Shown piece after piece: positions 31,512-57,229 of a DNA stretch of 64,000 nucleotides. Source of the stretch: Gammaproteobacteria bacterium (GTDB lineage: Bacteria > Pseudomonadota > Gammaproteobacteria > Natronospirales > DASSBR01). A program made the position numbers and the translations under genes. Numbering within the stretch: the first letter of the stretch is position 1; each line of letters starts with the position of its first letter. The stretch lies in NCBI GenBank assembly GCA_035690945.1, contig DASSJY010000003.1:8900-72899 (forward strand), read 5' to 3'. The notes under the pieces are model-generated. The model ran no database searches. It saw only the letters and a program-made list of their open reading frames with translations, and was not told the origin of the DNA.

Positions 31512-37223
<5,712 letters not shown>

Positions 37224-37233
37224 ACCTCGCTCC

Positions 37234-38901
37234 TCAGTTATTGGCAACCAATGCCTGTTGTAATTCTTCCGGACGTGCCGGTTTGGTCAGATGCTGATCG
37301 AACCCTGCCTGCAATGCGCGGCGGCGGTCGTTGTCGCGGCCGAAGCCGGTCATCGCGATCAGCCGGATGCCCTCGCCGCCGGGATGACCGCGCACCTGGC
37401 GCGCCACCGCGTAGCCGTCCAGTCCAGGCATGGCGATGTCGACGATCGCCACGTCGGGCTTGCGCCGCGCGATCAGCATGGCGCCGTCGCTGCCATCGGC
37501 GGCGGTTTCGACGTGGTGTCCCCAATCTTCCAGCAGCGCCTGGATGCTGTCGCGGATGTCAGTCTCGTCCTCGACCAGCACGATGTTCAGCGGCGCGCAC
37601 GCCGCGGCGACCGTCGCCGCCGGCAACGGCACATCGTCTTCGGCCGGCTCCGCCAGCGGAATCCAGACGCTGAATTCGCTGCCGTGGCCGTGGCCGTCGC
37701 TGGCCGCCCGCACACGGCCGCCGTGCATCGCGACCAGCCGCTGCACCAGCGCGAGGCCGAGACCCAGTCCACGGCCACGGCTGTCTTCCTGCACGAACTG
37801 CTCGAAGATACGTTCCAGCATTGCGGGCGAAATCCCCTGGCCGTTGTCGCTGACGCGGATCAGCGCTTCGTCGCCGTCGCGCATCCAAGTCAATTGAACT
37901 TTACCGCCCTCGTCGGTGTAGCGCGCGGCATTGTTCAGCAGATTGGCGATAATTTGCGTCAGGCGCACCGGGTCGGCCGCGACCGTCAGCGCCTCGTCCG
38001 GCGGCGTCACGGTGAGCGTGTGGCGCTTCTCGGCGATCATGTCGGCGACGCTGTCGGCGGCCTGCCCGGCTGCCTCGGCCACCGCGACGCGGCCGATCTC
38101 GACGTTGATCTTGCCGCTGGAAATGCGCGCCACATCGAGCAGGTCGTCGATCAGCCGCATCAGGTGGCGCGCCTGGCGGTCCATCATGCCGCGTACGCGG
38201 CACACGCCGGCGTTGTCCTTGCCGTAGGTTTCGAGCAGTTGGATGCCGGTGACGATCGGCGACAGCGGATTGCGCAGCTCGTGCGCGAGCACGGCGAGAA
38301 ACTCGTCTTTCTGGCGGTTTTCGCGCCGCGCCGTGTCCGCCTTCCAGCGTTCGCGCTCGATCGCGATCTGGCGCAGGCTCTCGCGGCGTTCCAGCTCGCG
38401 CAGGCGCTGGGCCTGGTGCTGCACCTCGGCGGTGCGCTCCTGCAACTCGACAAATACCCGCGCCTTGGCGCGCAGCACCTCGGGGACGATCGGCTTGAAC
38501 ATGAAGTCGACCGCGCCGAGGCGGTAGCCCTTGAAGATTTCGGCGTCGTTGCGGGTGTAGGCAGTGACGAAGATGATCGGTACGTGGCGGGTGCGCTTGC
38601 GGTTGCGGATCAGCCGCGCGGTTTCAAAGCCGTCCATCCCCGGCATCTGCACGTCGAGGATGATCAGCGCGAAGTCGCGCGTCAGCAGCTCGCGCAGGGC
38701 GGCCTGTCCGGACTCGGCCTTGACCAGCCGCCGGCCCATATCGCCGAGCGCCACCTCGATGGCGGCGAGATTCGGCTTATTGTCGTCGACGACGAGGATG
38801 TCCGCGGACGGTGGAATTGCCGCGCGCTCCCGTTGCGGCGAGATCGCTGTTTCCGACTCCAATGGGCGCATACTCTGCAAAAATGGCTTCGATTGTAGCA
38901 A
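37234..38901 (-). CDS. REC - HisKA - HATPase - REC hybrid histidine kinase
   Basis: N-terminal receiver ([10 protein letters not shown]...[11 protein letters not shown]...FMFKP), coiled coil, H-box AHELRNPLS, HATPase ([25 protein letters not shown]) and a C-terminal receiver (IVLVEDE...DIAMPGLDG...HLTKP). Confidence 0.85.
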
Positions 38902-40785: not shown

Positions 40786-43293
40786 CTACGTTTTCATCCC
40801 GACACTCTTCCGCATAGCCTTTGTAATCTGTCGCCGCGCGGCTTCAAACCCGTCCCACGGATCAGCCTTCAACGCCGCCATCCGCTGCGGCAGGTTATCC
40901 ACCCGATAATGATCCGATTTTATCGAATCACTGAGTTCATCCCAGCGAACGGGTACCGAAACCGGCGCATGCGGATGCGCTCGCGTCGAATAACTGGCGA
41001 TCGCCGTCGCGCCGCGCCCGTTGCGCAGGTAATCGAGGAAGATCCGCCCGCGCCGCCGCGCCTTGGACATATTCGCCGTCAGCTTCTTCGGCTCGTCATG
41101 TACATGCGCCTCGCACACCGCGCGCGCGAACGCCTTGATCTCGTCCCAGCCGTCGCGCCGCCGGAGCGGCACCACCAGGTGCAGCCCCTTGCCGCCGGTG
41201 AGGCGCACGAACGGCGTCAGACCCATCTGCTCCAGCCGCTCGCGCAACGTGCCGGCGACGCGCAATACCTCCGCCCACTTCACCTCGGGCGACGGGTCGA
41301 GATCGAACACGATCAGGTCGGGCTTGTCGACGTTGTCCACGCGGCTGCCCCAGGGGTGAATCTCCAGTACCCCCGCCTGCACCAGCGCGATCAGATCGGA
41401 CAGCGCGTGCACGTAAACGTAAGTTCGGAGATCGCCGTTGTTTTCGGTGATGTCGATACGCGGCATGCCCGGCACCAGCGCCTCGCCCGGATGCTTTTGA
41501 AAAAAACAGTTCCCCGCACCCGAAGGGCAGCGCAGCAGCGACAGCGGCCGGTCCATCAGTTGCGGCAGGATCCAGCCGCCGATCGCTTCGTAATAGTGCG
41601 CGAGATCAAGCTTGGTGATGCCCATCTCCTCGTACAGCACCCGGTCCGGGTTGCTCAGGCGCACGCCGGCGACCTGCTCGCCGCGGCCGCGGGCACGCAT
41701 TTTGGTCCGTTGTGGTGCCGGCTTCGCCGCAGACTTCGGATGCAGCCGAATCTCGTCCGCGTTGCGGTCCTCGCGCAGCCCGCGAAAACTCGGATGGCGC
41801 AGCCGCCCGTCGCGCGTCCGCTCGGTGAACGTCACGTCCACAACCAGATCCGGCCGCACCCAGTGCACGCCCGATGAATCCGGGACCGCCGCCTTGAACG
41901 GCCGCTTGGCGATCTCCAGTTTTTTGAGCGTCTTGTGCAGCGAGGTGAGCTGCCGATCCGAAAAGCCGGTCCCGACGCGTCCGGTGTAGGCGAGCTTGTT
42001 GTCGTCGTCCCAGACGCCCAGCAACAGCGCGCCGAAGCCGGTGCGCGAGCCGGCCGGATCGGTATAGCCGCCGACGATGAACTCCGCATCCTTGCTGCAC
42101 TTCGTTTTGCGCCACTGCTTGCTGCGCCCGCCGCTGTAGGGGCTGTCGGCGCGCTTGGAAATGATGCCTTCGAGGCCGGTCTCGCAGGCCTTGTCGAAGA
42201 AGGCCGGGCCGTTGCCGGCGACATGGTCGGTATAGCGAATCAGGCCGGGCGGATTGGCGCCGAGCAGCTCCGCGAGTACCCGCTTGCGATCAAGGAGTGC
42301 GACCTTTTTGAGATCGTAGCCGTCGAGATACAGCAGATCGAAGACGAAATAGACGAGGGCGTCGGTGCGCTGTTCGCTGAGCGCTTCCTGCAGCGCGCCG
42401 AAGCGGCTGACGCCGGCGGCATCGAGCGCCACCAGCTCGCCGTCGAGCAGCGCGCTGTCCACGTTCAGTTCGGCCAGCGTCTTGCGCAGCACCGGAAAGC
42501 GGTCACTCCAGTCCTTCGCGTTGCGCGTCAGCAGCCGCACCTTGCCGTGATCGAGCCGCGCCAGCAGCCGGTAGCCGTCAAACTTGATCTCATGCAGCCA
42601 GTCATCGCCGTCCGGAGCCTGCTTGCCCAGCGTCGCCAGCCGCAGCGACACCTCGCGCGGCAGCGCGGCCTTGCGCGCGCCTTTTAGTTTTGCCGCCTGC
42701 TCTGCCGCCACATCCTGCCGCGCCTTCGACTTCGCGCCGCGCGCAATCTCCTCCATCGTCCGCCCGCTCGCGACGCTCACATCGTCATCGCCGGGCGGCG
42801 CCGGCGTGCGTGTTTGCTTGCGGTCGTGGCGCTTGATCAGCAGCCAGTTCTTGCCGCCATCCGCCGCCTTGCCGCTCATCTGCACCAGCGTCCAGGTGCC
42901 GGCCAGCTTTTCGCCGTTCAACTCGAAATCGATATGGCCCTCCTTTTCCTTTTTCGCCCGCCAATGCCCCCGATCCCACAGCATCACCGTCCCGCCGCCA
43001 TATTCTTCTTCGGGAATCGTCCCCTCGAAATCCTTGTACTCGAACGGATGATCCTCAACGGCCACGGCCAGATGCTTCTCGCCGACCTTCAGACTTGGCC
43101 CTTTCGGCACCGCCCAGCTTCGCAGCACGCCATCCTGCTCCAGCCGCAGATCGAAATGCAGCCGGCTCGCGTCATGCTTGTGGATGACGTAGATAGGGTC
43201 ATCGGTGCCGGGGCGTGCGGTTTTACCGTCGCCGCCGGGCTCGGAGGTGCGCTGGAAATTGCGCTTCTGGCGGTATTTAGTGAGTCGTTCCAT
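40786..43293 (-). CDS. ligD: ATP-dependent DNA ligase D (phosphoesterase - ligase - polymerase/primase domains)
   Basis: PE domain: YVIHKHDASRLHFDLRLE, SWAVPKGPS. Ligase motif I: HEIKFDGYR. The C-terminal Pol domain (LSNPDRVLYEE...FFQKH...VFDLDP...GGKGLH) follows, giving the Pseudomonas-type domain order. Confidence 0.95.
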   Translation of the reverse strand: MERLTKYRQKRNFQRTSEPGGDGKTARPGTDDPIYVIHKHDASRLHFDLRLEQDGVLRSWAVPKGPSLKVGEKHLAVAVEDHPFEYKDFEGTIPEEEYGGGTVMLWDRGHWRAKKEKEGHIDFELNGEKLAGTWTLVQMSGKAADGGKNWLLIKRHDRKQTRTPAPPGDDDVSVASGRTMEEIARGAKSKARQDVAAEQAAKLKGARKAALPREVSLRLATLGKQAPDGDDWLHEIKFDGYRLLARLDHGKVRLLTRNAKDWSDRFPVLRKTLAELNVDSALLDGELVALDAAGVSRFGALQEALSEQRTDALVYFVFDLLYLDGYDLKKVALLDRKRVLAELLGANPPGLIRYTDHVAGNGPAFFDKACETGLEGIISKRADSPYSGGRSKQWRKTKCSKDAEFIVGGYTDPAGSRTGFGALLLGVWDDDNKLAYTGRVGTGFSDRQLTSLHKTLKKLEIAKRPFKAAVPDSSGVHWVRPDLVVDVTFTERTRDGRLRHPSFRGLREDRNADEIRLHPKSAAKPAPQRTKMRARGRGEQVAGVRLSNPDRVLYEEMGITKLDLAHYYEAIGGWILPQLMDRPLSLLRCPSGAGNCFFQKHPGEALVPGMPRIDITENNGDLRTYVYVHALSDLIALVQAGVLEIHPWGSRVDNVDKPDLIVFDLDPSPEVKWAEVLRVAGTLRERLEQMGLTPFVRLTGGKGLHLVVPLRRRDGWDEIKAFARAVCEAHVHDEPKKLTANMSKARRRGRIFLDYLRNGRGATAIASYSTRAHPHAPVSVPVRWDELSDSIKSDHYRVDNLPQRMAALKADPWDGFEAARRQITKAMRKSVGMKT

Positions 43294-43378: not shown

Positions 43379-45193
43379 TCAGCCGGCGACGTGCTCCACC
43401 GATCCGGCCGGCGTCGGCAGCCCGACCTTCTGACAGAACGCCGCGAAGCGAGGATCGCTCTTGTAGCGCAGGATGAACGGGTCGTGGAGCAGGTAGATGA
43501 TACCGGGGTCGCGATTGGTCCACGCGCGATCCAGCCATGCGAACATCCGGTCCGGGTCCCGGCGCAGCGCATAGACCTCGGCAATCTGGTACGCGGCAAC
43601 GTCGGCTTGTTCATTGATCAGCTTCTGCAAGGCCGCATCGGCGGCGACGCGGTCGTCGCCAACCTGGAGCGCCAACGCCAGTGCGACATCCCGCCATCCC
43701 GAGCCACCGCCGGGAATCTCCTGTCGCGCTGCCGTCAGGGCCGCGCGGGCGTCACCGCGCACGATCTCGACGATCGCCAGTTGCTCATGGTAGGACGCAG
43801 CAGTGGGCTGCAAGCCGATCGCTTTTTGTATCGCCTGCCTGGCTTCGTCGGGACGATGGAGCGCCAGCAGGTAATTGGAAAGCCAGCCATACCAGCGAGC
43901 GTTCAGCGGATCTGTCGCCAGCGCCTGGCGGGTCAACTGCACAGCCTGCTGCGTCCGCCCCAGCGCGGCCACCAGTTGCCCGAGAACGGCCTTGGTCTGG
44001 CCGTCGTTCGGCGCCAGTTGCAAGGCGCGCCGGTATTCGGCTTCCGCGCCCTTCCAGTCGAGGCCGGCCAGAATCATCAATTGACCGCGAGCACTGTAAG
44101 CCGCGGCCAATTCCGGGTCCAGCGCGACCGCCGTGGTCGCCGCCGCCGCCGCTTCCGCATAGGCGTGGCGCGCTTTTGCACCGCTAAACGAAGCGGCGGC
44201 CCAGGTGGACCACACGGCCGACAGTCCGGCATAGGCCGCCGCATAGCGCGGGTCGAGCCGGATGGCGGCATCGTAGACGTCGATCGCATTGCGAAAATCC
44301 GCATCGGCGTTGGTCAGGGCGTGCGATTTGGCGTGCAGGTAAGCCGCGTACGCGTCGAGATTACCGCTCGGCGGCCGATCGCTTTGCGCCACCGCACCGG
44401 CCGCGGGCAACAGCTTTGTCTTCAGCGCGGCGGCGACCGCATTCGTGATCTCATCCTGCAATGCAAACAAGTCCTTGTATGGCCGATCGTAGCGCTGCGA
44501 CCACAGCGCACTGCCGTCGGCGGCGTTCACGAGTTCGACACTCACGCGCACGGTGTTGCCGGCGCGGCGCACGCTGCCTTCCAGCAGATGCGCCACGCCG
44601 AGTTTCTCGCCGATGGTCTTGCTGTTGTCCTTGCTGTCGCGGAACTGGAACGAGGAGTTGCGGCCGATGACCTTCAATTCTCCGAACTGCGACAAGGCCG
44701 TGATCAAGTCTTCCGACAAACCGTCGGAGAAGTAGCGCTCGTCGGGATTGCCGCTCTCGTTTGCCAGCGGCAGCACGGCGATCGACTTTGCCGGAATCGG
44801 CGCCGCTGATCTGGTACCGGCGCCGGCCTTGGCCGTCGGGGCTATCGTCGCGGCAATATCCGCCGTCGGCGTGGCATGCTCGAGGCGCCACAGAAATGCG
44901 CCGCCGATCGCGAGCAGCAGCGCCAGGATCAGCAGTTCCGCGCCCGACAGGCGCTGCGCTCCGCGCTCGCCGTGATACCACGCCAGCACCAATACCACGA
45001 AGAAGCCGAGCACGAGCGCCAGCGTGACGCCGCGCAGCAAGGCGAGCGGCCAGTCGAACTGCTGGCCGATGAGATCAAATCCCTGAAGAACCACCCACGA
45101 CCCAGCCAGGTACGCCAGCGCCCACTGCACTAGCTTGCGCTGTTTGAGACGCGCGAAGAACGTGGTCATGATCGGCTCGGGCGCGGTACCCAT
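43379..45193 (-). CDS. Membrane-anchored TPR-repeat protein with TolB-N-like periplasmic module
   Basis: Three N-terminal TM helices, then SIAVLPLANESGNPDERYFSDGLSEDLITALS...LEGSVRR, then about 8 TPR-like repeats. The start is 45193 or MTTFF at 45169. Confidence 0.7.
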   Translation of the reverse strand: MGTAPEPIMTTFFARLKQRKLVQWALAYLAGSWVVLQGFDLIGQQFDWPLALLRGVTLALVLGFFVVLVLAWYHGERGAQRLSGAELLILALLLAIGGAFLWRLEHATPTADIAATIAPTAKAGAGTRSAAPIPAKSIAVLPLANESGNPDERYFSDGLSEDLITALSQFGELKVIGRNSSFQFRDSKDNSKTIGEKLGVAHLLEGSVRRAGNTVRVSVELVNAADGSALWSQRYDRPYKDLFALQDEITNAVAAALKTKLLPAAGAVAQSDRPPSGNLDAYAAYLHAKSHALTNADADFRNAIDVYDAAIRLDPRYAAAYAGLSAVWSTWAAASFSGAKARHAYAEAAAAATTAVALDPELAAAYSARGQLMILAGLDWKGAEAEYRRALQLAPNDGQTKAVLGQLVAALGRTQQAVQLTRQALATDPLNARWYGWLSNYLLALHRPDEARQAIQKAIGLQPTAASYHEQLAIVEIVRGDARAALTAARQEIPGGGSGWRDVALALALQVGDDRVAADAALQKLINEQADVAAYQIAEVYALRRDPDRMFAWLDRAWTNRDPGIIYLLHDPFILRYKSDPRFAAFCQKVGLPTPAGSVEHVAG

Positions 45194-45250
45194 CGGCGGA
45201 CCTCTCGCAAGGAGAGGGTAAGTATAGTCGCCTGTCGGGTCCTTGTACTC

Positions 45251-46162
45251 CTAGGCTCGAAACAACTCGTACCGGCGCTCAAGCGCCTGCCTCGCCGGCC
45301 GTTGCGCAGCCTTGGCGGGAAGTAAAAGCGACTCGTTGTGCAGCGCCTGCAAGCCGTACCTGAGCATCGGCCCGTCAACTTCATCCAGCACGTCGCGCCG
45401 AACCTCAATCACGTAATCCGGTCGCACGCCGATAATGCCGTGGTCGAACGCGGCATGATGAATCTTGCACAGAGACAGCCCATTGGAAACTTCCGGATGT
45501 CCTTCCGGATCGGTATCCGGAATGATGTGCGCTGCATCCAGCAATTCCCGATGCCGCAGATGACACATCGCGCAGTGCGTCCGGTAAGCGTCGAGAACGC
45601 GTTCGCGGAAAGACGCCTGATGCAGACGCCGCTGAACGGCCGCTGTCGCGTACTGCCGTCGGAATGTTGCGGACTCCGGTTCCTCTGCCCCGCCAGTCGC
45701 CGCTAAACGTTCCTCAAATGTGCCGGCTACGTCTGCCATAACGGTGAACTTCAAGGCCGCCCGATCGTCTCCCGTCACAAACACCGGCTTGATGACCGCG
45801 TAGCGACCAACGGTCACCGCGAATAAATAGATTAATGGGACGTTGTCGCGCATTGCATTGCGTAGCCCGACGTTGTCCCGGTGTTGCGGGTTCGTGCCGC
45901 GATAGCTGTAGGAAAGTCGATGCGCGTCTTCAAACCGGTCCGGGTATGGCCCGTTAAGGACGGTCGTGATCGTCAGCGGATAGTCGCAGCCGCGCGGGGT
46001 GAATATCCCTTGCGGCGAAACAAGCGGGATACGCCGGTCGTCCAATTCAAAGCCCGCGGAAAGAAGCGCCCGCGGCAGCACGTCCCCGTGCTGGACAAGT
46101 TGTCTGTTAACCCATTGGAAGGTGCGGGTTCGGACACGTATGTCCCACGATGCAGTGGACAT
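45251..46162 (-). CDS. HNH nuclease (HNH_2-type) with an uncharacterised ~190-aa N-terminal domain; possible modification-dependent restriction enzyme
   Basis: C-terminal CAMCHLRHRELLDAAHIIPD...VSNGLSLCKIHHAAFDHG is the HNH_2 pattern. The N-terminal domain contains YSYRGTNPQHRDNVGLRNAMRDNVPLIYLF. There is no obvious SD before the ATG at 46162. Confidence 0.65.
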   Translation of the reverse strand: MSTASWDIRVRTRTFQWVNRQLVQHGDVLPRALLSAGFELDDRRIPLVSPQGIFTPRGCDYPLTITTVLNGPYPDRFEDAHRLSYSYRGTNPQHRDNVGLRNAMRDNVPLIYLFAVTVGRYAVIKPVFVTGDDRAALKFTVMADVAGTFEERLAATGGAEEPESATFRRQYATAAVQRRLHQASFRERVLDAYRTHCAMCHLRHRELLDAAHIIPDTDPEGHPEVSNGLSLCKIHHAAFDHGIIGVRPDYVIEVRRDVLDEVDGPMLRYGLQALHNESLLLPAKAAQRPARQALERRYELFRA

Positions 46163-46223
46163 GGCGAACGGGGTGACCTACGCGAGCGGCGGACGAGGCG
46201 CGAGCGAAAACTTGCAATAACCC

Positions 46224-46508
46224 CTAAAGCAAGTCGTGGGCTTCCATCTCACCATGAATCTCTCGAATTTCGCGATTTAGTTGCGCAACGTATTCACCAG
46301 CGACTTGAGAAAATAGGTCTTCTCCTACTTCCTCCAGTTTGATCTCAAATACGCCGGCCTTGATTCGCGTTACGAGCTTATTGAACGCGCTTTTTACGGC
46401 ATTAGGCTTGTCGTCAGAGATCGGAATGCTGATCTGTTCAGTGCCAACTCCGATCCTGATGAAGCGGTTGCCGTCTTCGCTTACCACTGTCGCCTTAATT
46501 ATGTCCAT
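46224..46508 (-). CDS. 94-aa acidic protein of unknown function, translationally coupled to the PHP-ATPase gene
   Basis: The ATG at 46508 (MDIIKATVVSEDGN...) lies inside the last codons of the upstream gene (14-nt overlap). GAGG is 8 nt upstream. The composition matches the AT-rich island. I recognise no family. The longer start at 46541 is less likely. Confidence 0.5.
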   Translation of the reverse strand: MDIIKATVVSEDGNRFIRIGVGTEQISIPISDDKPNAVKSAFNKLVTRIKAGVFEIKLEEVGEDLFSQVAGEYVAQLNREIREIHGEMEAHDLL

Positions 46509-48639
46509 AGATCGTGCCTCGCTCTCCAAATGCCTCTTCACCGCCTTCGAGAGTGCTCATGCTGATTTGCTTCCAGTCAAGTTGGTCCGTCGCATCATCA
46601 GAATTTACCAAACTATTCATGAACGGATTGCCGGCGTAGGTGCTATATCCCTCTTTTCCGTGGTGCCGGTAAATGGAACTATAAGGAAGTGTCCGTACTG
46701 CGATATTTGCATCATGAGTCGAAATAAAGACCTTCTTGCCCGCCCGAGCACGCTCCTTAATCAGCGGCACAATGACGTCACTAATATATTCGTTACCCAA
46801 ACTTCGCTCCGGCTCATCAAGGATGTAGATTTCTTTATCTACTCCCAATTCCTTTTGCAACATCACCATGGATGACTCACCGCTCGAGGGCGAATAGGGA
46901 TTTCCGTCCAGTGCGAAGTACCGTTTGAAGAGAAGCAACTCATAAACTGTGTTGATGGTTTCTATATCCTCGATATCGTTGAGGTCCGAAACGTGCTGAA
47001 AGAGATCGTCCGCGTATGCACATTGAAGAATTTTTCGTACGGAATTGACAAACTTTTTCTGTGACCCCTTCTTTACTCCCGTCAGGCTCGAGAGAGCGCC
47101 ATCGGTAATGCTTCCCTTTTGGAAGCGGAACTCCGTCCTGAGTTGTAGTAGTCCTTTACTTGGGCCGAGACTTCCAATATGTTCAATTTGCGTAGGGAGT
47201 TCCGTGTCGACCCCTTTAATGATCTCCGCGGCGTTTAGTTCAACCTTAATTCGGTTCATGGCGTAGTCGCGGAAACCTGTAGTTGTCGGCTTGGCGGGCA
47301 TCCCCGTTTTTCGGGCAACTTCGCTGCGAAAAGTTTTAATCGCAGAATTGAGCAAGAAAATCTCTTTCCAACCTGTGAATGCCTGCCATTTGCCATCGCG
47401 CAGGCGCTGGAGTAATTTTGCTAAAATCCGCGTTACTTCCGTGAATTCATCTCCGCTTAGCATATTCAGCACAGCAGTAGACTTGGGTAGAAATTCGACA
47501 AACTCAGCGGTTCGTTTTACTGCCTCATTAAATTCGCCGAACTTGCGTTTGGCGCCGCCCTCTTCTTCTGGTTCGATATTCGTTAGCAGAATCTTCTTTG
47601 CGTTCTTGTTGGTGCTTTTCGCCGCGAAGTAAAGAACGTACTTGCTCAGGCTGGTAACTGCAACTTCATGCGCGTTCCGTAGGGCCTCGATTTCGTCGGA
47701 ACAATAGTTGATTTCGTGCGTATTGAGATTGATTGCCAAGTCCTTCCCTTTGGTATCAAAAATCTCATTGAGTCGGTCACTCGCGGATTCATAAACTCGC
47801 GCGTCGATTCCGTTCTCCGAGTAGTGTCTAGCAATGGCCTTGAGAATGCATGATTTGCCGGTTCCTTTAGCGCCGAAGATAACGTTGATGTCGTTATATA
47901 CCTTCATTTGCAGCGTCGAACCATCTTCAAATGGATGCAGAAGGAGGCTTTCGGACGTCTTTCGATCCATGGCCGTATTAATCGTCGTCGGATCTTTCTT
48001 CAATAACAGGCAAAAATGTTCGAAGCTGTCCACTGGCAGCCGAAGATCCGGAAGATCGCGAGATAGCTCTTCGTATTTTGCCCAATCTTGAAGGTCAGAC
48101 CCGTAGATAGAAGATCGCCCGTGGGATATATATATACCTGCCGAAATCGAATTGGTCACCTCTTTGATAACGCATTCGGGGTTACTTGTTTTGGTTTCCA
48201 GCGCCTCAATCGCGTCGTCCGGAAGGTTAGGTTTCTTTTGCTTGTAATGGGCGACATATAGCGGATGGAAGGCATCAAACGCCTCTACGACCTCGTCGAT
48301 CGTCGCTGTAAAGCTGTCTGGATTGGAGCCGCTAGTTAGTATTTCGACTGCCGCAGAAAGTTCCGTAGCTCGCGCGGGTGAAACGATTACCAACAAGTGG
48401 CCTCTCACGCCTCCTTCCAAGACATCGAGCTCAACCCCAGGCCAGACTTGCACCTCTCCATCTAAAAGGCTCGCCATCTGCTGATATTGAGCCAAGTCGA
48501 CAGCATTATGGTTAGTGATAGCGATGATCTTGACATCTGTGGAAAGAATCGCCCCGCAGAAATCGGATGGAGAAATCTCTCTCGTCGGCGCATCACCGGA
48601 CTTGCATTTCTTCGTGTGCGCGTGGATGTCGATCTTCAT
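46495..48639 (-). CDS. PHP-domain phosphoesterase fused to an ABC/SMC-type ATPase (Ppl-like candidate defence protein)
   Basis: PHP metal-ligand pattern: IDIHAHT, ITNHN, GVELD, GHLLVI. Walker A GAKGTGKS (res 256-263), signature-like SSGESSM, Walker B IYILDEPE and STHD near the C-terminus. AGGTGG lies 8 nt before the ATG. Confidence 0.85.
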   Translation of the reverse strand: MKIDIHAHTKKCKSGDAPTREISPSDFCGAILSTDVKIIAITNHNAVDLAQYQQMASLLDGEVQVWPGVELDVLEGGVRGHLLVIVSPARATELSAAVEILTSGSNPDSFTATIDEVVEAFDAFHPLYVAHYKQKKPNLPDDAIEALETKTSNPECVIKEVTNSISAGIYISHGRSSIYGSDLQDWAKYEELSRDLPDLRLPVDSFEHFCLLLKKDPTTINTAMDRKTSESLLLHPFEDGSTLQMKVYNDINVIFGAKGTGKSCILKAIARHYSENGIDARVYESASDRLNEIFDTKGKDLAINLNTHEINYCSDEIEALRNAHEVAVTSLSKYVLYFAAKSTNKNAKKILLTNIEPEEEGGAKRKFGEFNEAVKRTAEFVEFLPKSTAVLNMLSGDEFTEVTRILAKLLQRLRDGKWQAFTGWKEIFLLNSAIKTFRSEVARKTGMPAKPTTTGFRDYAMNRIKVELNAAEIIKGVDTELPTQIEHIGSLGPSKGLLQLRTEFRFQKGSITDGALSSLTGVKKGSQKKFVNSVRKILQCAYADDLFQHVSDLNDIEDIETINTVYELLLFKRYFALDGNPYSPSSGESSMVMLQKELGVDKEIYILDEPERSLGNEYISDVIVPLIKERARAGKKVFISTHDANIAVRTLPYSSIYRHHGKEGYSTYAGNPFMNSLVNSDDATDQLDWKQISMSTLEGGEEAFGERGTIYGHN

Positions 48640-48839: not shown

Positions 48840-51800
48840 TTAGCGTCCAGTTGCGCTCGCGGACTCAGAGATGACGATCAGGCCATCGCCGTTGCGCTGG
48901 ATGCCGGGCTGAGCTGTCATATATTCGAGACCGTCGGCCATTCGCTCGCGGGTCTTCTGAGTCAGGCGCTGAAATCCCAATATTCGCATGGCCTCACGGA
49001 CTAGCGCATCTTCCGTCATGCTGACGTAGCTCTCCAGCACCTGCCTGAGCGCGTTCGCAATTTCCGGCAGCGGAATTTCGTCGGAAGAACGCTTGGCTTC
49101 CGGAACGCCGCCTGGCACACGCACCCGCCGATAGCTGATGGGATCTTGGTTGCGTCGCCATATGACTACATCGCCATCTTCGTCCGTCACAAACACGTCG
49201 GACCGGCGGAGCGCACCTTCTATACGATGGAGTAGTTTCTGGGTGACCTGCTGAAATCCCCACGCCTCGCCGACGCGACGGGCAAGAACCGGCAGCAGCA
49301 CCGGCCCTTCGACGTCTGCCACCTCGTGTATTTGCCGCACGAGCACAATATCCGAGGCGCCTTCATAGATCGCCGATTGTTCGCCGGGTACGAGGTCGAG
49401 TTGGCAGGGCTGGTATTTGGCGGTAGCCGCGGTGCGGCGCGTGGCTTGGTTGAAAACATCCCCGGCCGTTATGCGCAGTCCGTCGCTCTTAGTGGACCCA
49501 CGAGTGGCATTAGGCTCGTTCGAGAGAGCTGCAGCGGGTACTCTCGTTTCCGCCCTGGGAGGCTGTTCCAGTAGTTTGCCGAGAACCTTTTGAAGGCGGT
49601 CGATTTGCTGGGCCGGATCATGCCACCAGTCCGTGGACCAGACTCGGAGCACCGTCCAACCTAGATCCTCTAACACGGCCTGGCGAAGGCGATCACGATC
49701 GCGTGCCGTATGGGCACTGTGATAGGTAGCACCGTCGCATTCTACTGCCGCGAGATATTGCCCTGGCTTCCGAGGATCGAGGATGGCCAAGTCAATTCGG
49801 TAACCCGAGCAGCCGACTTGCGAATGGACTTGCCACCCCTTATCGAGAAGCGCCATTTTCACAGCATCTTCGAAGGGTGATTCGGTGTCGGCACCGGGGT
49901 CTACGGTGAGCTGCGAGTAGAGAGCCTGAGCGCCGCGTTCGGCGTATTCAAGAAAGCTCCGCAGGTCGGCAACTCCGCGTGAGTTGGTTCGGTTTAGATC
50001 GATGTCCGAATAACGGATACTTGAGTAGACGAGCAAAGCCTTACGCGCCCGCGTAATCGCTACGTTCAGTCGCCGCTGACCGCCCTCACGGTTGATCGCA
50101 CCAAAGCTGAGTGTGGAACGCCCGACTGCATCCTTTCCGAAGCAGATCGAAAACAAAATTACGTCCCGTTCATCACCCTGCACGTTCTCTAGATTCTTGA
50201 TAAATACCGGCTCTCGCGCGTCCTCGGCGAAATAACGGTCAAGCTCCGAGTCGCTGAGGCGCGCATTTTCCAGCAGATCCTCAATCAGTCGTTGCTGCTG
50301 AATATTGAAGGTTACGACGCCGATGGATTCGTGCTGGCGTGACGGATCGTGGAGTCGCTGAGCTATTTCGGCAACGATAGCTTCGGCTTCAGCTCGGTTG
50401 GTCCGCGACTTGCCCCGGTCATACACGGCGCCATCTACGTAACGGAACTCGACACCCATGCCTTCCAGGTATGGCGACGGAAAACTTAACAGACGGTTTT
50501 CGTAATACTCGTAATTGCTGAATGCGATCAGGCTTTCGTGGCGGCTCCGGTAATGCCATGTGAGCGGCAGAGACGGGATCCGAGCAGCCGTGCATTCTTC
50601 GAGTATGCTCTCCATGTCTGCGATTTCGTCTGGATCCGGTTCATCTCCAGCGTCGGCGGAGCGATTAAAGAAATTGGTTGGAGGCATCTGCTTGGAGTCA
50701 CCAGCGACGACCAAGCTCTTGCCGCGCGCGATGGCACCGAGTGCGTCCCATGGAGTGATCTGCGATGCTTCATCAAATACGACTACGTCAAACCAAGCGC
50801 GCCCCGCCGGCAGATACTGTGCGATCGACAAGGGGCTCATCAGGACGCACGGCGCGAGCCTGGGCAAAATGTTAGGGATGCTCTGGATAAGTTGGCGAAT
50901 CGGCATCAGGCCGCGCCGCCGCTTCGCTTGGCGCGCAAGGATTCCGATCTCTGAGTCGCCATGCGGTTCCCCGATTGGCCGGGGCACGCGCGCGGCCAAC
51001 GATGCTCGAACGTACTTGCGCGTAAGCTGGGTAAACTGGCTGTCCTGTTCGCGAAACCGTTCGAGTTTGCGCTCGTGCTCGGCGCTGAAAAAATCGCGAA
51101 CCGCGGGTTCAGTTGTCAGAGCGGTCTCAAACCACCATCGGTAAAGACTGCGTTCACAGGCCGCCGCCAGTTGGCCGCCCTCGAATGAACCGCTTTCATA
51201 GGCTGCAATCACGGGCCCGAATCCGCTTTGAATGGCACGATTTCGGGACCTGCGCCAATTGGTCCACTCACGGAGACGGCGCGCATTGGTGCTGAAGAGT
51301 CGGCAGGTGTCGATGAGGCCGCCCAAGTAATCTGCGCCGGCGCCTCCGAACCTGTCAAAATCCAGTTCCAGGGACTGCACCAGTTGATCACGTGCTTCCG
51401 TGAAAACCCGAAAGGCTTCGCGGTAAGCAATGAAGTCGCTTCCAATGGTGCCATCCGGCCGAAGAAGTTGCGGATCAGCGCATGCTATTACCGCCCAAGA
51501 ATCCCGTAGCGCGCGCGCACGCTCCGGGTCTGCATCGCTAAGGCTGAGCGCCGCGCTACGCAGACGGCCGCTCCAAATCTGTAGCCCGTGAATTTCGTCC
51601 CAGTTGCTTTCGCCGGGACGCCAGAAGCGGCCCAGCACGTGCCGCGCATCATCAGACTGCGACGAAAGCAGGTTTTCCTCCTGTTGAACTTGGACTCCCA
51701 GCGCGAGCAACGGGTCGATTGAATCGGGAGCAAGTTTTGCCTTTGTCCTTTGCGTCGCCCTAAGCGCCTTTGTGACGCGCCGCCGGAGAAGCCAAGCCTT

Positions 51801-54758
51801 CATGAACCAGCTTTGATCCGCGAGCTGCCACAGCTTGCGAAGCGCCGCCAGGTCGAGCTCAAGAATCTGCGGCTGATACTCTTGGAGGAGATCCTGCCTA
51901 AGGGCGTCGCGGCGCTTTCCATGCGCAATCCAGTCGTCAAGTTTGGCTTCGAGTTCTTTCCAGTCATCCTGCGCCAGCAGCGCGCGGGGCGGAGCGGGGC
52001 AGTCCAGAAACAGCTTTGTTAGTTCGTGCATCTGTTCGAGCTGGCGCAGCGACCAACCTTGATCCGCTAATTTGAGCCGTGTGGACACGGAGCGTGCGGC
52101 TTGCAGTAGCGCCACGATTGACTGGTGCAATTTTGCGGTGCCGTCGGCGGCATCACGGTCCAAAGCTGGCGTCCACTGCATAGCGCAGACAATGTCAAAG
52201 CGCGGGTTTCCGATTTCATCCCGGATCTTCGCGGCCGTGGCGGTTTCGTCGAGGAGTTCCAGCATGGACGATAGATTGTCGCCGTCAAGCACTTCCAGCG
52301 ATGGCCACGAAGCCGCGACAGCTGGCGCATCGTTCAGCGTCAGTAGATGGCCGATCGCGCGGTAGAGGCTGAGCCCATTGCTGCGCTGCCGATGGAGCCC
52401 TTCCACATAGTCGTTGAGAGCCGACCGCAAATCCGCGAGTTTGACCGCCTCTCGTTCCCAGTCGACTTGCGCCTGTTCCGCAGTGATTGCAAGTGGACGA
52501 GCCAGCTGCTCGACAACTTCGCGCTTCCGAGCTTTTTTGGAATGTAGTTCAAGACAGAAAGGCCCCAGTCCGACCTTATCAAGCCGATCGTAGACAACGT
52601 TCAGCGCCGCCGCTTTTTCTGATACGAATAAAACCGTTTTTCCGTTCATCAGGCACTGGGCAACAATATTTGCGATAGTCTGGGACTTGCCGGTACCTGG
52701 CGGCCCCTCCAATACGAATGTCCGACCTTCAGCAGCAGCGAAGATGGCAGCCAGTTGCGACGAGTCAGCGGGCAGAGGGCAGAACGTATCTTTTGGGTGA
52801 TACTCACGATCAAGCCGGTCCGGTTGAGGAAACTCGCCGTCGTCGCCGAAGGACTCGGTTGCGTGGTTGAGCAGATGGTCGACCACAGAGCTTTGCATGA
52901 TCAATTCCATGTGATCCTGCAGGTCCTTCCACATCAGGTATTTATTAAAGGAGAACAGCCCCAGCGCGACGCGCTCCTGAACCTCCCACCCCGGCAGGTC
53001 ACGCACTGCGTGGCGCACGATGTTGATTATTTGGGGGATGTCGACGCCTGCATCATCTGTCGGCAACGTCTCGAGTGCGCGCAGGTTGAGATCGAAGTCG
53101 CGCTCCAGTAACTGCAGTAGCGAAATATTGATGATCGTGTCGTCGTCATGGCTACACAGCGTAAAGCCGTGGTTGACGGAGCGACGGCTCAATTCAACCG
53201 GCACCAGCACCAGAGGCGCAAGACATGGCTCGCTGCGCTGCTGCGGTACCCACGACAGAAATCCAATGGCTAGATATAGCGTGTTAGCTCCGCCTTCGCT
53301 CTCCGCTTCCTTGGCGGCCCGATAGATCTCCAAAAGGTGGCGGTCCAGGCGTTCTGATCCGAGGACTGAATGCAGACGTCCGGCCTGCATTTCATCGCTG
53401 ATATATCCTTGAAGGGGGTTCTCCCCGGTGCGCGCGATGTAGACATCTGCCTGACGACCGTCGCCGCGCTCCATCAATCTCTCGTTCGGCAAGATCCGGA
53501 ACTGGCTCCCCTCCGCTAAATGATCTTCTAGGGCAGCGGGATCTGCTACCTGCAGTACGACCGTTTTCTTGCTTTCTTTGAAATTCAGCAGGCGGTTGTT
53601 TAGCGTGAGATCCAGCAACATGGCGCGCCAACGCTCGAGGCGGTTCTGCGGGGTTTCTTTTTCCGCCGCGCCCGACAGTCCATCATCCCAAGCCGGTAGG
53701 TCTGGAATGTCAAAGACCGCTTCGTTCTTGACCTTCTGGGCCGGTTCAGCAGGGGCTGTTGCGGCGTTTGCACCGCGAATCGGTAGTGGCTGGATCCGGT
53801 TATGACGTGCTCGCGCGACGTCGATGAACAGACGGAAATCCTCTTCCTCATTAAGCCGGCTACGCGCCTCAGCCACGGCGGTATTGAAGTCGACCGCACG
53901 AGTGGCGGCAGTCGATTCGAACGCGCAGATGTCGCGCATATCCACACGCTTGCGCAATGACAGGAGGTCATCACTGGCTGCAGTCTCAAATGACTCGTCG
54001 TGCAGCCAGACGCCCGGCAACGCGTGCCCGCTGAAGAAGACGATTACCGGATGAAGACCAGCTTGCTCAAGACAAGCCGAAAAAAGCAACGTGCTATCAA
54101 GGCACGTTGCAAGGCGCGTCGATTCAATCCGATCCGGCGTCCGAATCTTCTGGCCGCGCTCCTCGAAGCTGGCAGGTGGACTACAGTAAGCAATATTCGA
54201 TTGCATCACGGTGGCGTAAATCGAGGCCGCAATTGCCCAAACGCGTTTCCGATCTTGCTGCTGATAGCCGTCGAGGGCGCCGCTACCAGTGTGCTTTTCA
54301 AGAACGATCGAGGCGGCGCGAAGATACCGCTCGGTTGCTGGATGGTTCGGAAACGAAAAAGCAGCTATTAGCTCAGGGATGGATCCAATACCAGCCCATT
54401 CGTCATACGCAAGGATGTTGATGGGCAAACTCTGATGGGCTTCCGTTTGGTCGCCAGCCAAGACACTGACAGCGAGCTGACCCCGTAGTCTTTCCGCCAA
54501 GCCGCCAAGGTACCCCGGCGATAGCGTCAAGTCGACGGGTCGCAGTTCGTACGACTCGCCCGGGCTTATGCTGCTAATGCGTGTGCGATAAAGTTCCGCA
54601 AATCCCGGATCGCTCTGCACCTCGACGACGATGTTTTCGACAGTTGTTTCGCCTGTGTTTGCGAGGACGATCGAACGGATTACGGGGACCGCGTTTTGCT
54701 GTCGCGCAAAGTTTACGCGCTCATCGAATTCGACGAGTTTGATTTGAATTCGGGACAT
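48840..54758 (-). CDS. 1972-aa multidomain protein: beta-sandwich + transglutaminase-like Cys/His module, DUF4011, SF1 (Upf1/DNA2-like) helicase with large insertion, Vsr/DUF559-like endonuclease, DUF3320 (Hhe-like candidate defence protein)
   Basis: TCLDSTLLFSACLEQAGL...SGHALPGVWL (Cys219/His245). DUF4011-like LLDLTLNNRLLNFKESKKTV. Walker A LEGPPGTGKSQT (685-692), Walker B VVFDEASQ (~1327), VAGDSKQMPP, WHYRS, VQGDERDV, RRLNVAITRARK. GYRIDLAI...AVECDGATYH...GWTVLRVWSTDWW (about 1650-1712). The C-terminal segment VEGPVLLPVLARRVGEAWGF is DUF3320-like. Confidence 0.9.
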   Translation of the reverse strand: MSRIQIKLVEFDERVNFARQQNAVPVIRSIVLANTGETTVENIVVEVQSDPGFAELYRTRISSISPGESYELRPVDLTLSPGYLGGLAERLRGQLAVSVLAGDQTEAHQSLPINILAYDEWAGIGSIPELIAAFSFPNHPATERYLRAASIVLEKHTGSGALDGYQQQDRKRVWAIAASIYATVMQSNIAYCSPPASFEERGQKIRTPDRIESTRLATCLDSTLLFSACLEQAGLHPVIVFFSGHALPGVWLHDESFETAASDDLLSLRKRVDMRDICAFESTAATRAVDFNTAVAEARSRLNEEEDFRLFIDVARARHNRIQPLPIRGANAATAPAEPAQKVKNEAVFDIPDLPAWDDGLSGAAEKETPQNRLERWRAMLLDLTLNNRLLNFKESKKTVVLQVADPAALEDHLAEGSQFRILPNERLMERGDGRQADVYIARTGENPLQGYISDEMQAGRLHSVLGSERLDRHLLEIYRAAKEAESEGGANTLYLAIGFLSWVPQQRSEPCLAPLVLVPVELSRRSVNHGFTLCSHDDDTIINISLLQLLERDFDLNLRALETLPTDDAGVDIPQIINIVRHAVRDLPGWEVQERVALGLFSFNKYLMWKDLQDHMELIMQSSVVDHLLNHATESFGDDGEFPQPDRLDREYHPKDTFCPLPADSSQLAAIFAAAEGRTFVLEGPPGTGKSQTIANIVAQCLMNGKTVLFVSEKAAALNVVYDRLDKVGLGPFCLELHSKKARKREVVEQLARPLAITAEQAQVDWEREAVKLADLRSALNDYVEGLHRQRSNGLSLYRAIGHLLTLNDAPAVAASWPSLEVLDGDNLSSMLELLDETATAAKIRDEIGNPRFDIVCAMQWTPALDRDAADGTAKLHQSIVALLQAARSVSTRLKLADQGWSLRQLEQMHELTKLFLDCPAPPRALLAQDDWKELEAKLDDWIAHGKRRDALRQDLLQEYQPQILELDLAALRKLWQLADQSWFMKAWLLRRRVTKALRATQRTKAKLAPDSIDPLLALGVQVQQEENLLSSQSDDARHVLGRFWRPGESNWDEIHGLQIWSGRLRSAALSLSDADPERARALRDSWAVIACADPQLLRPDGTIGSDFIAYREAFRVFTEARDQLVQSLELDFDRFGGAGADYLGGLIDTCRLFSTNARRLREWTNWRRSRNRAIQSGFGPVIAAYESGSFEGGQLAAACERSLYRWWFETALTTEPAVRDFFSAEHERKLERFREQDSQFTQLTRKYVRASLAARVPRPIGEPHGDSEIGILARQAKRRRGLMPIRQLIQSIPNILPRLAPCVLMSPLSIAQYLPAGRAWFDVVVFDEASQITPWDALGAIARGKSLVVAGDSKQMPPTNFFNRSADAGDEPDPDEIADMESILEECTAARIPSLPLTWHYRSRHESLIAFSNYEYYENRLLSFPSPYLEGMGVEFRYVDGAVYDRGKSRTNRAEAEAIVAEIAQRLHDPSRQHESIGVVTFNIQQQRLIEDLLENARLSDSELDRYFAEDAREPVFIKNLENVQGDERDVILFSICFGKDAVGRSTLSFGAINREGGQRRLNVAITRARKALLVYSSIRYSDIDLNRTNSRGVADLRSFLEYAERGAQALYSQLTVDPGADTESPFEDAVKMALLDKGWQVHSQVGCSGYRIDLAILDPRKPGQYLAAVECDGATYHSAHTARDRDRLRQAVLEDLGWTVLRVWSTDWWHDPAQQIDRLQKVLGKLLEQPPRAETRVPAAALSNEPNATRGSTKSDGLRITAGDVFNQATRRTAATAKYQPCQLDLVPGEQSAIYEGASDIVLVRQIHEVADVEGPVLLPVLARRVGEAWGFQQVTQKLLHRIEGALRRSDVFVTDEDGDVVIWRRNQDPISYRRVRVPGGVPEAKRSSDEIPLPEIANALRQVLESYVSMTEDALVREAMRILGFQRLTQKTRERMADGLEYMTAQPGIQRNGDGLIVISESASATGR

Positions 54759-54863: not shown

Positions 54864-54885
54864 GGCCAGTTCTCGCATTGTAGCA
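54864..54885. repeat. Direct repeat copy A (GGCCAGTTCTCGCATTGTAGCA)
   Basis: 21 of 22 nt are identical to 55852-55873 in the same orientation. It lies about 100 nt beyond the start of the giant helicase gene, at the AT-rich island edge. Confidence 0.7.
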
Positions 54886-55082: not shown

Positions 55083-55997
55083 CTAATCGCCGGCAAGCAT
55101 GGAAGCCAGTTCGGGGATGCCGATGACGGCGACGCTTTCGGCTTTCTGGTAGCGCTCTTCGCCGGAATAAACGATGAAGCTGCAGTCCGGCTTCAAATCT
55201 GCGCGGGCGTGGTGGAATCCCTTGTCGAGCTTGGGAGCGAGGCTGCGCTTGATTTCCACGGCCCAGCGCTTGCCGCCGGGCAGATCCAGCACCAAGTCTA
55301 TTTCCGCGCCGGCCGAAGTCCGATAGAAGCAGGCTTGGGTTCTTTCCGGCGCGGCGCTCAGCAGATTTTCTATGACGAAGCCTTCCCAGCTTCCGCCGGC
55401 GACCGGATGGCCGAGCACTGCTTCCCGGTCGTCGAGACCCAGCAGCGCGTGAGCGATGCCGCTGTCGCGCACGTAAACCTTGGGCGATTTTACGAGTCGT
55501 TTGCCGACATTCGCGTGGAAGGGCTGCAAGCGCCGCACCAGCAACAGGTCGACCAGCAGGTCGAGATAGCGGGCGACGGTTTTGCCGTCGACGCCGAGGC
55601 CACGTGCGAGTTGAGCCGCATCAAGCGTTCCGCTGTGCATGTGCGCGAGCATCGTCCAGAAGCGGCGCAGCGTTTCGGCCGGCACTCGCGGCCCCAGTTG
55701 CGGAATATCCCGTTCCAGGTAGGTGCGAATAAAGTTTTCGCGCCAGACGGCGCTGGCCTCGTCAGATGTCGCCAGAAAGCTGTCGGGGAAGCCGCCCCTG
55801 ATCCAGAGCGTTTCTTGTTGGCCACCGTCGATTTCGAGTGCACCAGCCGGGGGCCAGTTCTCGCATTGTTGCATTTGAGCCAGTGGGGGATATCCTCTCG
55901 AGTTACCATCGCACAGGGCAACGTAGCTGCGCATCGCGAGACCCATAGTTCTTCGCGCAACAAGCTGACGCAGCCGTACGCTGCTGCAATTCCGCAA
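55083..55997 (-). pseudogene. 5'-truncated AAA_14/DUF4143-family ATPase gene (only the C-terminal two-thirds retained)
   Basis: From ...TLWIRGGFPDSFLA onward the ORF matches the post-Walker region and DUF4143 part of COG1373-type ATPases (HSGTLDAAQLARGLGVDGKTVARYLDLL, KSPKVYVRDSGI, EIDLVLD). No Walker A or AAA_14 N-domain is present, and the first ~45 aa look unrelated. Homology starts at about the position of repeat copy B. Confidence 0.6.
55852..55873. repeat. Direct repeat copy B (GGCCAGTTCTCGCATTGTTGCA)
   Basis: See copy A. It sits at the point where similarity of the DUF4143 ORF to its family begins. Confidence 0.7.
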
Positions 55998-56015: not shown

Positions 56016-56591
56016 CTACTGGAGTTCGTCGAGCGTCGAGGTCACGAGCACGCAGGTGCAGCCGGTTTCGCTGTAAACGCGTGTGTCGCCGGTGCCTCGT
56101 TCGCCGCGATTATAGTCGCCCGGATAGAGCTTCCGGTCTTCGATCCACAATTCGCCGTCGAGCAGATGCAATTCCTCGACGCCGGCGTGCTGATGCGGCG
56201 GATATACCCCGCCGGGCTCGAGGCGTACGAGCATGCTCACGCGGTGGCGCTCGGTGTCGTTGGCGAGCAACTGGCACCAGATGCCGGGCGCGACATTTTC
56301 CCATTCCGGCTCTTTCCAGCTTTGCGCCGGAGATGCCGGATCCCGCGCGGTCGCGTCGATGCCAATGCGCTCGGCGAGCCGGTTCCAAAGCGACGGCGAC
56401 GGCCGCAGCACGTCGGTCGGCCACGAGGAGAACGAATCCACCACGGGCGCGAGCGTCGCGAGCGTGCGTCGGCAGTCCTCGCAGGTCGCGAGGTGCGCCT
56501 CAACGCCGGCCTTCTCGCTCGGCGGCAACGCTCCCAGCGCGTAAGCGCAGACCTGGTCCGCAAACCCGCAGTTATTCGCCGGCGCGGTCAT
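56016..56591 (-). CDS. ChrR-type anti-sigma factor (zf-HC2 anti-sigma domain + cupin)
   Basis: The start MTAPANN at 56591 forms an ATGA overlap with the sigma gene stop. HLATCEDCRR is the zinc anti-sigma motif. The C-terminal cupin is PGGVYPPHQHAGVEELHLLDGEL. Confidence 0.8.
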   Translation of the reverse strand: MTAPANNCGFADQVCAYALGALPPSEKAGVEAHLATCEDCRRTLATLAPVVDSFSSWPTDVLRPSPSLWNRLAERIGIDATARDPASPAQSWKEPEWENVAPGIWCQLLANDTERHRVSMLVRLEPGGVYPPHQHAGVEELHLLDGELWIEDRKLYPGDYNRGERGTGDTRVYSETGCTCVLVTSTLDELQ

Positions 56592-57229
56592 AGATCGTTT
56601 CCTTCCGGCCCGAGAGTCCGACGAAGCTTGCCGAGCCCTGACCGGATCCGTGTCTTGATTGTTCCGAGCGGCTCGTTCAGCCGAACCGCCACTTCGGAGT
56701 AGGTCAGGCCGGAGAAATAGGCGGTTTCGATCGCGAGGCGCTCGTTGGCCGTCAAGGTCGCTAGTGCACAATGCAACGTGCCTGCTTGCTGCGCTCGCTC
56801 GACAGGCGCCTCGGACGGGTTGTTGGCCGCAATCGCGGCCTCGGCCTGTCCGGTGTGTGGATTGACGCGCTTCTTGCGTCCATCGTGGCGCACCCGGTCG
56901 ATCGCCCTCGACCGCGCCTGGTTCATGATCCAGCCGACGACCGTACCGGCATCCGGATCGTACGTCGGGGCGCGACGCCAGACGTCGTGAAAAACGTCCA
57001 GCGTCAACTCTTCCGCCGTTTGGCGGTCATTCGCAATTCTCATGGTGAGCGTAAACACGATTCGTTGAGCGCGGTTGTAAAGCGCCTCGAGCGCATACTC
57101 GTCACCGGTCGCGATCGACCTGACGAGCGCGACCCAGTCGCTCTCGTCAACCAGCTCCGCAGCGGGCTGTGCATAAAGCACGTCCCCGAGCGTAGCCGGT
57201 GCCGCCCCTGTTTCATCGTCCTCACGCAC
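56588..57229 (-). CDS. ECF (group 4) RNA polymerase sigma factor
   Basis: Region 2 (AEELTLDVFHDVWRR, GTVVGWIMNQARSRAIDRVR) and region 4 HTH (LTYSEVAVRLNEPLGTIKTRI). Confidence 0.85.
   Translation of the reverse strand: MREDDETGAAPATLGDVLYAQPAAELVDESDWVALVRSIATGDEYALEALYNRAQRIVFTLTMRIANDRQTAEELTLDVFHDVWRRAPTYDPDAGTVVGWIMNQARSRAIDRVRHDGRKKRVNPHTGQAEAAIAANNPSEAPVERAQQAGTLHCALATLTANERLAIETAYFSGLTYSEVAVRLNEPLGTIKTRIRSGLGKLRRTLGPEGNDL

Follow-up and report, generated by a model that had tools for sequence, protein, structure and literature searches.

The window analysed here is a 64,000-nucleotide stretch of a gammaproteobacterial assembly (GCA_035690945.1, contig DASSJY010000003.1, positions 8,900 to 72,899), in which a gene on the reverse strand, at positions 48840-54758, encodes a protein of 1972 amino acids (aa). 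We found that this protein is a divergent new member of the known ProA family. Our preferred reading, to which we give a probability of about 0.7, is that it is a stand-alone, single-polypeptide anti-phage helicase-nuclease, sister to Hhe, located within a small and variable defence locus in the genome of a soil bacterium whose guanine-plus-cytosine (GC) content is ~65%. The family membership, the order of the domains and the intact state of the catalytic motifs in each of the three enzymatic modules are established. All features of the protein given below lie on the reverse strand of the window.

The NCBIfam equivalog NF058533, which carries the name anti-phage protein ProA, matched the protein with 2203.8 bits against a cut-off of 1500, and the match extended over profile positions 1-1903 of 1903 and residues 16-1931 of the protein. 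Because the match covers these residues, the curated ProA family already includes the N-terminal module described below, and the order of all of the modules is the same. Most of the ProA members in the database are only ~45% identical to the 1972-aa protein, and the nearest relatives among the 120 homologues listed are metagenomic, with identities of 86% and 59%. The best PADLOC model was the candidate system PDC-S37 (1372.9 bits, positions 7-1541 of 1550 aligned with residues 371-1957). Like our protein, PDC-S37 extends from DUF4011 through the C-terminal tail, but its 1550-position model lacks the beta-sandwich and transglutaminase module and corresponds to short forms that occur naturally. 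Hhe ranked second in PADLOC with 610 bits.

The initial annotation had likened the core of the protein to Hhe, a single-gene defence system reportedly described by Gao et al. 2020. An assignment of the protein to Hhe did not hold, as the NCBIfam Hhe equivalog NF042953 scored 870.7 bits against a cut-off of 2000. The two families do have much in common; Hhe is likewise a single gene whose product contains DUF4011, a superfamily 1 (SF1) helicase whose Walker A and Walker B are separated by a large insertion, and a Vsr-like nuclease of the MTES_1575 type. However, in the RefSeq-annotated Hhe WP_021314612.1 (1911 aa, from a Klebsiella plasmid) DUF4011 begins at residue ~24, such that the protein lacks the N-terminal module, and it also lacks DUF3320. 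In comparison, the 1972-aa protein adds an N-terminal module of 370 residues and a DUF3320 tail, whereas the Walker A-Walker B insertion is longer in Hhe. The alignment between the two proteins was confined to residues 374-406, 460-849 and 1160-1734, with 32-39% identity over the two long segments. Thus, the earlier description, in which an Hhe-type core carries an extra module, was right in its anatomy, as the core is common to Hhe and the annotated Hhe does not already carry the module, but the protein itself is not an Hhe. As judged from these profile scores, it is a member of ProA, a distinct named sister family of Hhe.

The central part of the protein begins with DUF4011 (residues 381-551, 53106..53618; Pfam E=1.1e-42), which aligns with the N-terminus of Hhe. 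The first part of the SF1 helicase follows at 52575..52766, with Walker A (GPPGTGKS) at residues 685-692 and matches to AAA_11, AAA_30 and AAA_19. The remaining helicase core occupies residues 1303-1578 (50025..50852) and matches AAA_11 and AAA_12; it contains the DEAS, GDxxQxPP, QGDERD and NVAITRAR motifs, with Walker B (FDEASQ) at residues 1328-1333 and motif VI (NVAITRAR) at 1565-1572. Walker A, Walker B and motifs III, V and VI were invariant or at least 90% conserved in the homologue alignment, and the AAA_11 and AAA_12 domains together with motifs I, II, III, V and VI identify the protein as an Upf1-like SF1 helicase. By sequence, the closest solved helicase cores were IGHMBP2, Upf1 and Sen1 (E values of 5e-13 to 1e-4), IGHMBP2 being the nearest. 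These are eukaryotic RNA/DNA helicases that differ from our protein in having no nuclease, no transglutaminase module and no insertion of ~555 residues.

The insertion between Walker A and Walker B (residues 745-1300, 50859..52526) is conserved across the family and rich in Leu, Ala and Arg; the initial annotation had predicted it to be helical. No family matched it in a Pfam scan, and comparison of its profile with itself revealed no internal repeats in the 1972-aa protein. Several longer relatives of 2120-2299 aa (P0007, P0013, P0026, P0038 and others) contain a unit of the pattern W..HG..RD.LR...LDL..L...W in one or two additional copies, located after the positions equivalent to residues 938 and 1051, which indicates that the insertion grows by duplicating its own units. 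A HEPN domain was considered as the source of the extra ~270 residues in these long relatives and was rejected in favor of the duplicated units.

The nuclease is a Vsr-fold endonuclease of the MTES_1575/DUF559 type at residues 1629-1725 (49584..49874; Pfam E=2.7e-36), and its score of 124 bits exceeded the threshold of 38.2. Asp1656 and Asp1675 were invariant, Glu1673 and His1680 were at least 90% conserved, and the GYRIDLAI, ECDG and RVWSTDWW motifs all fall within this domain. The C-terminal tail (residues 1740-1972, 48843..49541) contains Pfam DUF3320 at residues 1797-1841, and the two wHTH (winged helix-turn-helix) domains of such tails are reported to overlap DUF3320 (PMC3710099). The layout of the core read from the sequence in the initial annotation was therefore accurate in outline: a DUF4011-like region at about 370-620, a helicase of the Upf1/DNA2 type, an insertion then estimated at ~570 aa, a Vsr/DUF559-like endonuclease at about 1625-1715 and a DUF3320-like tail at about 1800-1950 all correspond to the domains that we found.

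The N-terminal module was examined by structure prediction. An AlphaFold2 (AF2) model of residues 1-372 had a mean predicted local distance difference test (pLDDT) value of 91.7 and a predicted template modelling score of 0.89, and it consisted of a beta-sandwich (residues 4-115), an alpha/beta domain (125-320) and a low-confidence linker (~325-370). The strands at 4-115 agree with the beta-rich character previously ascribed to residues 1-120. This Ig-like beta-sandwich (residues 1-120, 54399..54758) was modelled with pLDDT values of 94-98, and Foldseek searches with the two-domain model returned mostly Ig-like sandwiches, including chains of transglutaminase 2, factor XIII and protein 4.2 (112-122 aligned columns). 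The few longer matches that covered both domains were 3kd4, a putative protease, and open-state transglutaminase 2. Because the beta-sandwich dominated this search, residues 122-335, which contain the core, were modelled and searched on their own. This second model had a pLDDT of 91.1, and almost every PDB match with a probability of at least 0.6 was a transglutaminase-fold protein. The structural neighbors of the core included yeast and mouse PNGase, the putative cysteine proteases 3kd4 and 3isr, a TGase, TglA and PeiP, as well as TgpA, Rad4/XPC and LapG. The papain-like, transglutaminase-fold core at residues ~125-320 (53799..54386) is also recognized by Pfam in roughly half of its diverse relatives, whereas the protein itself falls below the Pfam thresholds. 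A profile search of PDB sequences with the N-terminal module gave marginal matches (E ~0.2) to a transglutaminase-like protein and 3kd4.

Relatives were counted in a scan of one genome per species, from which the best 80 loci were examined and 42 diverse loci were used for the triad and Pfam comparisons. Transglut_core matched 18 of the 42 diverse relatives (best E=8.4e-6) and DUF553 matched 20. The core contains the ATCLDS and GHALPGVWL sequences that had led to the proposal of a transglutaminase/papain-like domain with Cys219 and His245, which had been placed at the correct nucleotides. In the AF2 model, Cys219, the predicted nucleophile (54102..54104), is at the start of a helix, His245, the predicted general base (54024..54026), is on a strand, and Glu281, the acidic third residue of the triad (53916..53918), is within an (E/D)xT motif. 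Both Cys219 and His245 were invariant in 52 of 52 close homologues, in which residue 281 was Glu in 40 and Asp in 12. Among the 42 diverse loci, Cys was found in 37, His in 37 and an acidic residue (E/D) at the third position in 41. Cys and His were both gone from the same five loci (L022, L046, L048, L057 and L058), and such a paired loss is what the decay of an active dyad into a pseudoenzyme would be expected to leave. These five loci retain the fold residues E231, W251 and D313 (numbering of the 1972-aa protein), and their N-terminal modules are apparently pseudoenzyme versions.

The structure and profile searches support the conclusion that the N-terminal module belongs to the transglutaminase-like superfamily, with which it shares the fold and a Cys-His-acidic triad. 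In animal transglutaminases and in 3kd4 a beta-sandwich also precedes the core, as it does here. In contrast, sequence identity to the superfamily is only 9-18%, and the module has mostly Glu where the superfamily has Asp.

Both ends of the protein are optional. At least 595 genomes, one per species, contain a relative, and they come from Pseudomonadota, Planctomycetota, Verrucomicrobiota, Bacteroidota, Bacillota, Actinomycetota and other phyla. The N-terminal module was fused to the core in 68 of the best 80 loci, and at least 9 of these 80 were genuine short forms that start at DUF4011 with ample upstream DNA. Searching with the module alone recovered 3659 clusters at 50% identity, and it was N-terminal in all of the best 150. 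At the other end, the tail is missing from the annotated Hhe, and about 10 relatives have no recognizable DUF3320 tail. The boundary between the N-terminal module and DUF4011 is a low-confidence linker (residues 325-372, 53643..53786; pLDDT 45-65), and it is within this linker that the short forms begin and that one relative is split. In that relative, on a metagenomic contig (L086:219-1585), the N-terminal module is a separate open reading frame (ORF) of 348 codons and an ORF that begins with the DUF4011 motif follows after 24 nt; this single case could be a naturally split form or result from a sequencing error. No ProA orthologue was found in 5,426 complete E. coli genomes in near and distant DNA searches with a copy from a Klebsiella plasmid as the query.

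The combination of domains had been proposed to be undescribed, a claim that fails because giant proteins with a transglutaminase-like peptidase, an SF-I helicase, a Vsr DNase and wHTH domains were reported by Anantharaman et al. 2013 (PMC3710099); the curated ProA profile likewise includes the module. The name of the Pfam nuclease family is that of the MTES_1575 protein cited in the same paper. Those giants resemble the 1972-aa protein in their transglutaminase-like peptidase, SF1 helicase, Vsr-family restriction endonuclease and two wHTH domains (DUF3320), but they have an N-terminal HEPN RNase, whereas our protein starts with the all-beta residues 1-120; a Pfam scan at E values up to 1 detected no HEPN family. 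The authors found the giant helicase-Vsr proteins unaccompanied by modification genes and proposed that the wHTH domains recognize DNA while the transglutaminase domain cleaves protein (PMC3710099). A full-text literature search did not find the publication behind the NCBIfam ProA name; it returned PMC3710099, PMC10250203 and preprints related to Hhe.

The gene itself is intact. The ORF has 1972 codons without interruption, as had been noted previously, starts with ATG and is preceded by a G-rich stretch that resembles a Shine-Dalgarno sequence. A sigma-70 promoter scan identified no site for the gene, and the two ORFs that precede it upstream, of 90 and 96 codons, have no family match and appear to be spurious. 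Most of the 120 listed homologues, which are each ~1970 aa and come from many phyla and independent assemblies, aligned over 98-100% of the query, which argues that the ORF is neither a fusion artefact nor a chimera. In addition, 99-100% of the sampled words from positions 50000-54000 were present in two soil-metagenome runs.

The GC content drops from about 65% to 49-59% over 46-56 kb of the window, and it is 56-59% in the gene. None of the nine neighboring ORFs recurs across the best 80 loci, which fits a single-gene system. The locus is flanked on one side by a full-length LigD (phosphoesterase, ligase and primase-polymerase; 40786-43293, reverse strand) and on the other by a ChrR-like extracytoplasmic function (ECF) sigma/anti-sigma pair (56016-57229, reverse strand). 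L084, the nearest relative contig, has both flanks conserved, with 86-87% identity; its ProA gene shows 83% DNA identity to ours, and the ProA stop codon there leads straight into ligD. In our window, a block of ~5.5 kb (43379-48639) lies downstream of ProA, between its stop codon and ligD. Since the block is missing from L084, it was either inserted here or deleted there. Its ORFs encode a TPR protein, a 303-aa HNH_2 endonuclease and a 714-aa protein with PHP and ABC-type ATPase domains that resembles PDC-M49A and TrlF, and the GC content at 46-48 kb, inside the block, is 49%. The block appears to be a separate candidate defence pair that was gained recently.

On the upstream side, a 22-nt direct repeat, GGCCAGTTCTCGCATTGT(A/T)GCA, at 54864-54885 and 55852-55873 brackets the remnant of a DUF4143 gene (55083-55997). 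The match of this remnant to PDC-S01 begins only at profile position 170, such that the ATPase half is missing, and the remnant is probably a fragment of a defence gene in decay; about 650 nt of the segment are absent from L084. Farther away, a second giant ORF (31512-37247, reverse strand) encodes a 1911-aa hybrid histidine kinase with about ten HAMP repeats, GAF and HisKA/HATPase domains and two receiver domains, and another hybrid kinase is adjacent to it at 37234-38901.

Our model for the protein assigns a role to each of its parts. The C-terminal winged-helix tail and DUF4011 would engage DNA, and the Upf1-like SF1 motor would use ATP to translocate along the nucleic acid. The Vsr-fold nuclease would then cut invading DNA or replication intermediates without involvement of a modification enzyme. 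The unit formed by the beta-sandwich and the transglutaminase fold would serve as an independently folding accessory module, which, judging from its conserved residues, may be a competent Cys-His-Glu/Asp hydrolase (peptidase or amidase) in most members. The most probable function of this module is to regulate or trigger the core, for instance through recognition or cleavage of a phage protein; otherwise, it might contribute a second activity directed at proteins. Several phage genes for DNA metabolism act as triggers of Hhe (preprint 10.1101/2024.10.10.617714), and by analogy this suggests that the core common to Hhe and ProA may sense the consequences of phage replication. We tentatively propose that the N-terminal unit is an active hydrolase with a Cys-His-Glu site, through which an event directed at a protein is coupled to the helicase-nuclease, and that it is detachable, being fused in the majority of members, supplied in trans in some and decayed to a pseudoenzyme in others; this proposal is possible but doubtful. 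The event could be cleavage or deamidation of a phage protein, or removal of a protein adduct from DNA.

Two alternatives concern the identity of the gene. It is exceedingly improbable that two or more genes were joined into a giant ORF by an assembly or sequencing error, as the initial annotation had allowed. Although the N-terminal module and the core are separate adjacent ORFs in the split metagenomic relative, the collinearity of most of the 120 listed homologues from end to end and the presence of the sequence in the two soil-metagenome runs both indicate that the ORF is genuine. It is also very improbable that the protein is simply an Hhe with a lineage-specific N-terminal extension. The common DUF4011, SF1 and MTES_1575 core, the identity to the Klebsiella Hhe over residues 460-849 and 1160-1734 and the PADLOC Hhe match are what this explanation can draw on, but the protein fails the NCBIfam Hhe cut-off while passing that of ProA, PDC-S37 outscores Hhe by 1373 to 610 bits, and Hhe has neither end module and a longer insertion.

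The other two alternatives concern function. The transglutaminase-fold module could be non-enzymatic, binding DNA or a partner as in Rad4/XPC or autoinhibiting the helicase-nuclease, and we regard this as possible but rather unlikely. The five relatives that replaced Cys and His yet kept the fold residues, the Rad4/XPC chains among the Foldseek neighbors and the short forms, which imply that the core is self-sufficient, are consistent with such a role. In contrast, the invariance of Cys, His and the acidic residue in the 52 close homologues, their retention in 37-41 of the 42 diverse loci and the loss of Cys and His only together argue for a site that is or was catalytic. It is improbable that the protein serves genome maintenance or DNA repair instead of being dedicated to defence against phages. 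Such a role would be in keeping with the adjoining LigD, with the nucleic-acid quality control carried out by Upf1-like helicases and Vsr, with the same position between ECF sigma/anti-sigma and ligD in L084, and with a large DUF4011 gene that is core in P. aeruginosa (PMC10250203). However, both a curated anti-phage equivalog and a PADLOC candidate model match the protein, its relatives are distributed patchily across phyla and occur on plasmids, the GC content of the gene is below that of its flanks (~65%), and the neighboring genes are variable and of defence type.

Several points weigh against our preferred reading of an anti-phage ProA protein. The anti-phage phenotype of the family comes solely from the curated NCBIfam name, and the polarity of the helicase, the substrate of the nuclease and the trigger are all inferred in our model. 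The large DUF4011 gene mentioned above is present in all P. aeruginosa isolates, where it flanks the defence hotspot cDHS1, and this leaves room for a housekeeping role (PMC10250203). With respect to the N-terminal module, the Foldseek matches of the transglutaminase core have weak statistics (best E=0.018, template modelling scores of at most 0.41), so the case for this fold rests on the consistency of the matches, and the DUF553 score of the protein itself was 14.9 bits against a cut-off of 20.5. Moreover, the absence of Cys and His from 5 of the 42 diverse relatives implies that catalysis is not universally required, and the Hhe trigger data weaken the idea of a protein sensor.

As an annotation the gene is ordinary; its interest lies in the role of the N-terminal module. 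Our analysis extends the ProA family by a divergent member from a soil metagenome and shows both end modules to be optional. The conserved Cys-His-Glu site, the paired loss of Cys and His and the split form provide testable handles on the role of a transglutaminase-fold domain in an anti-phage helicase-nuclease. If our tentative proposal for this module is true, ProA would read a protein signal and execute its response on DNA within one polypeptide.

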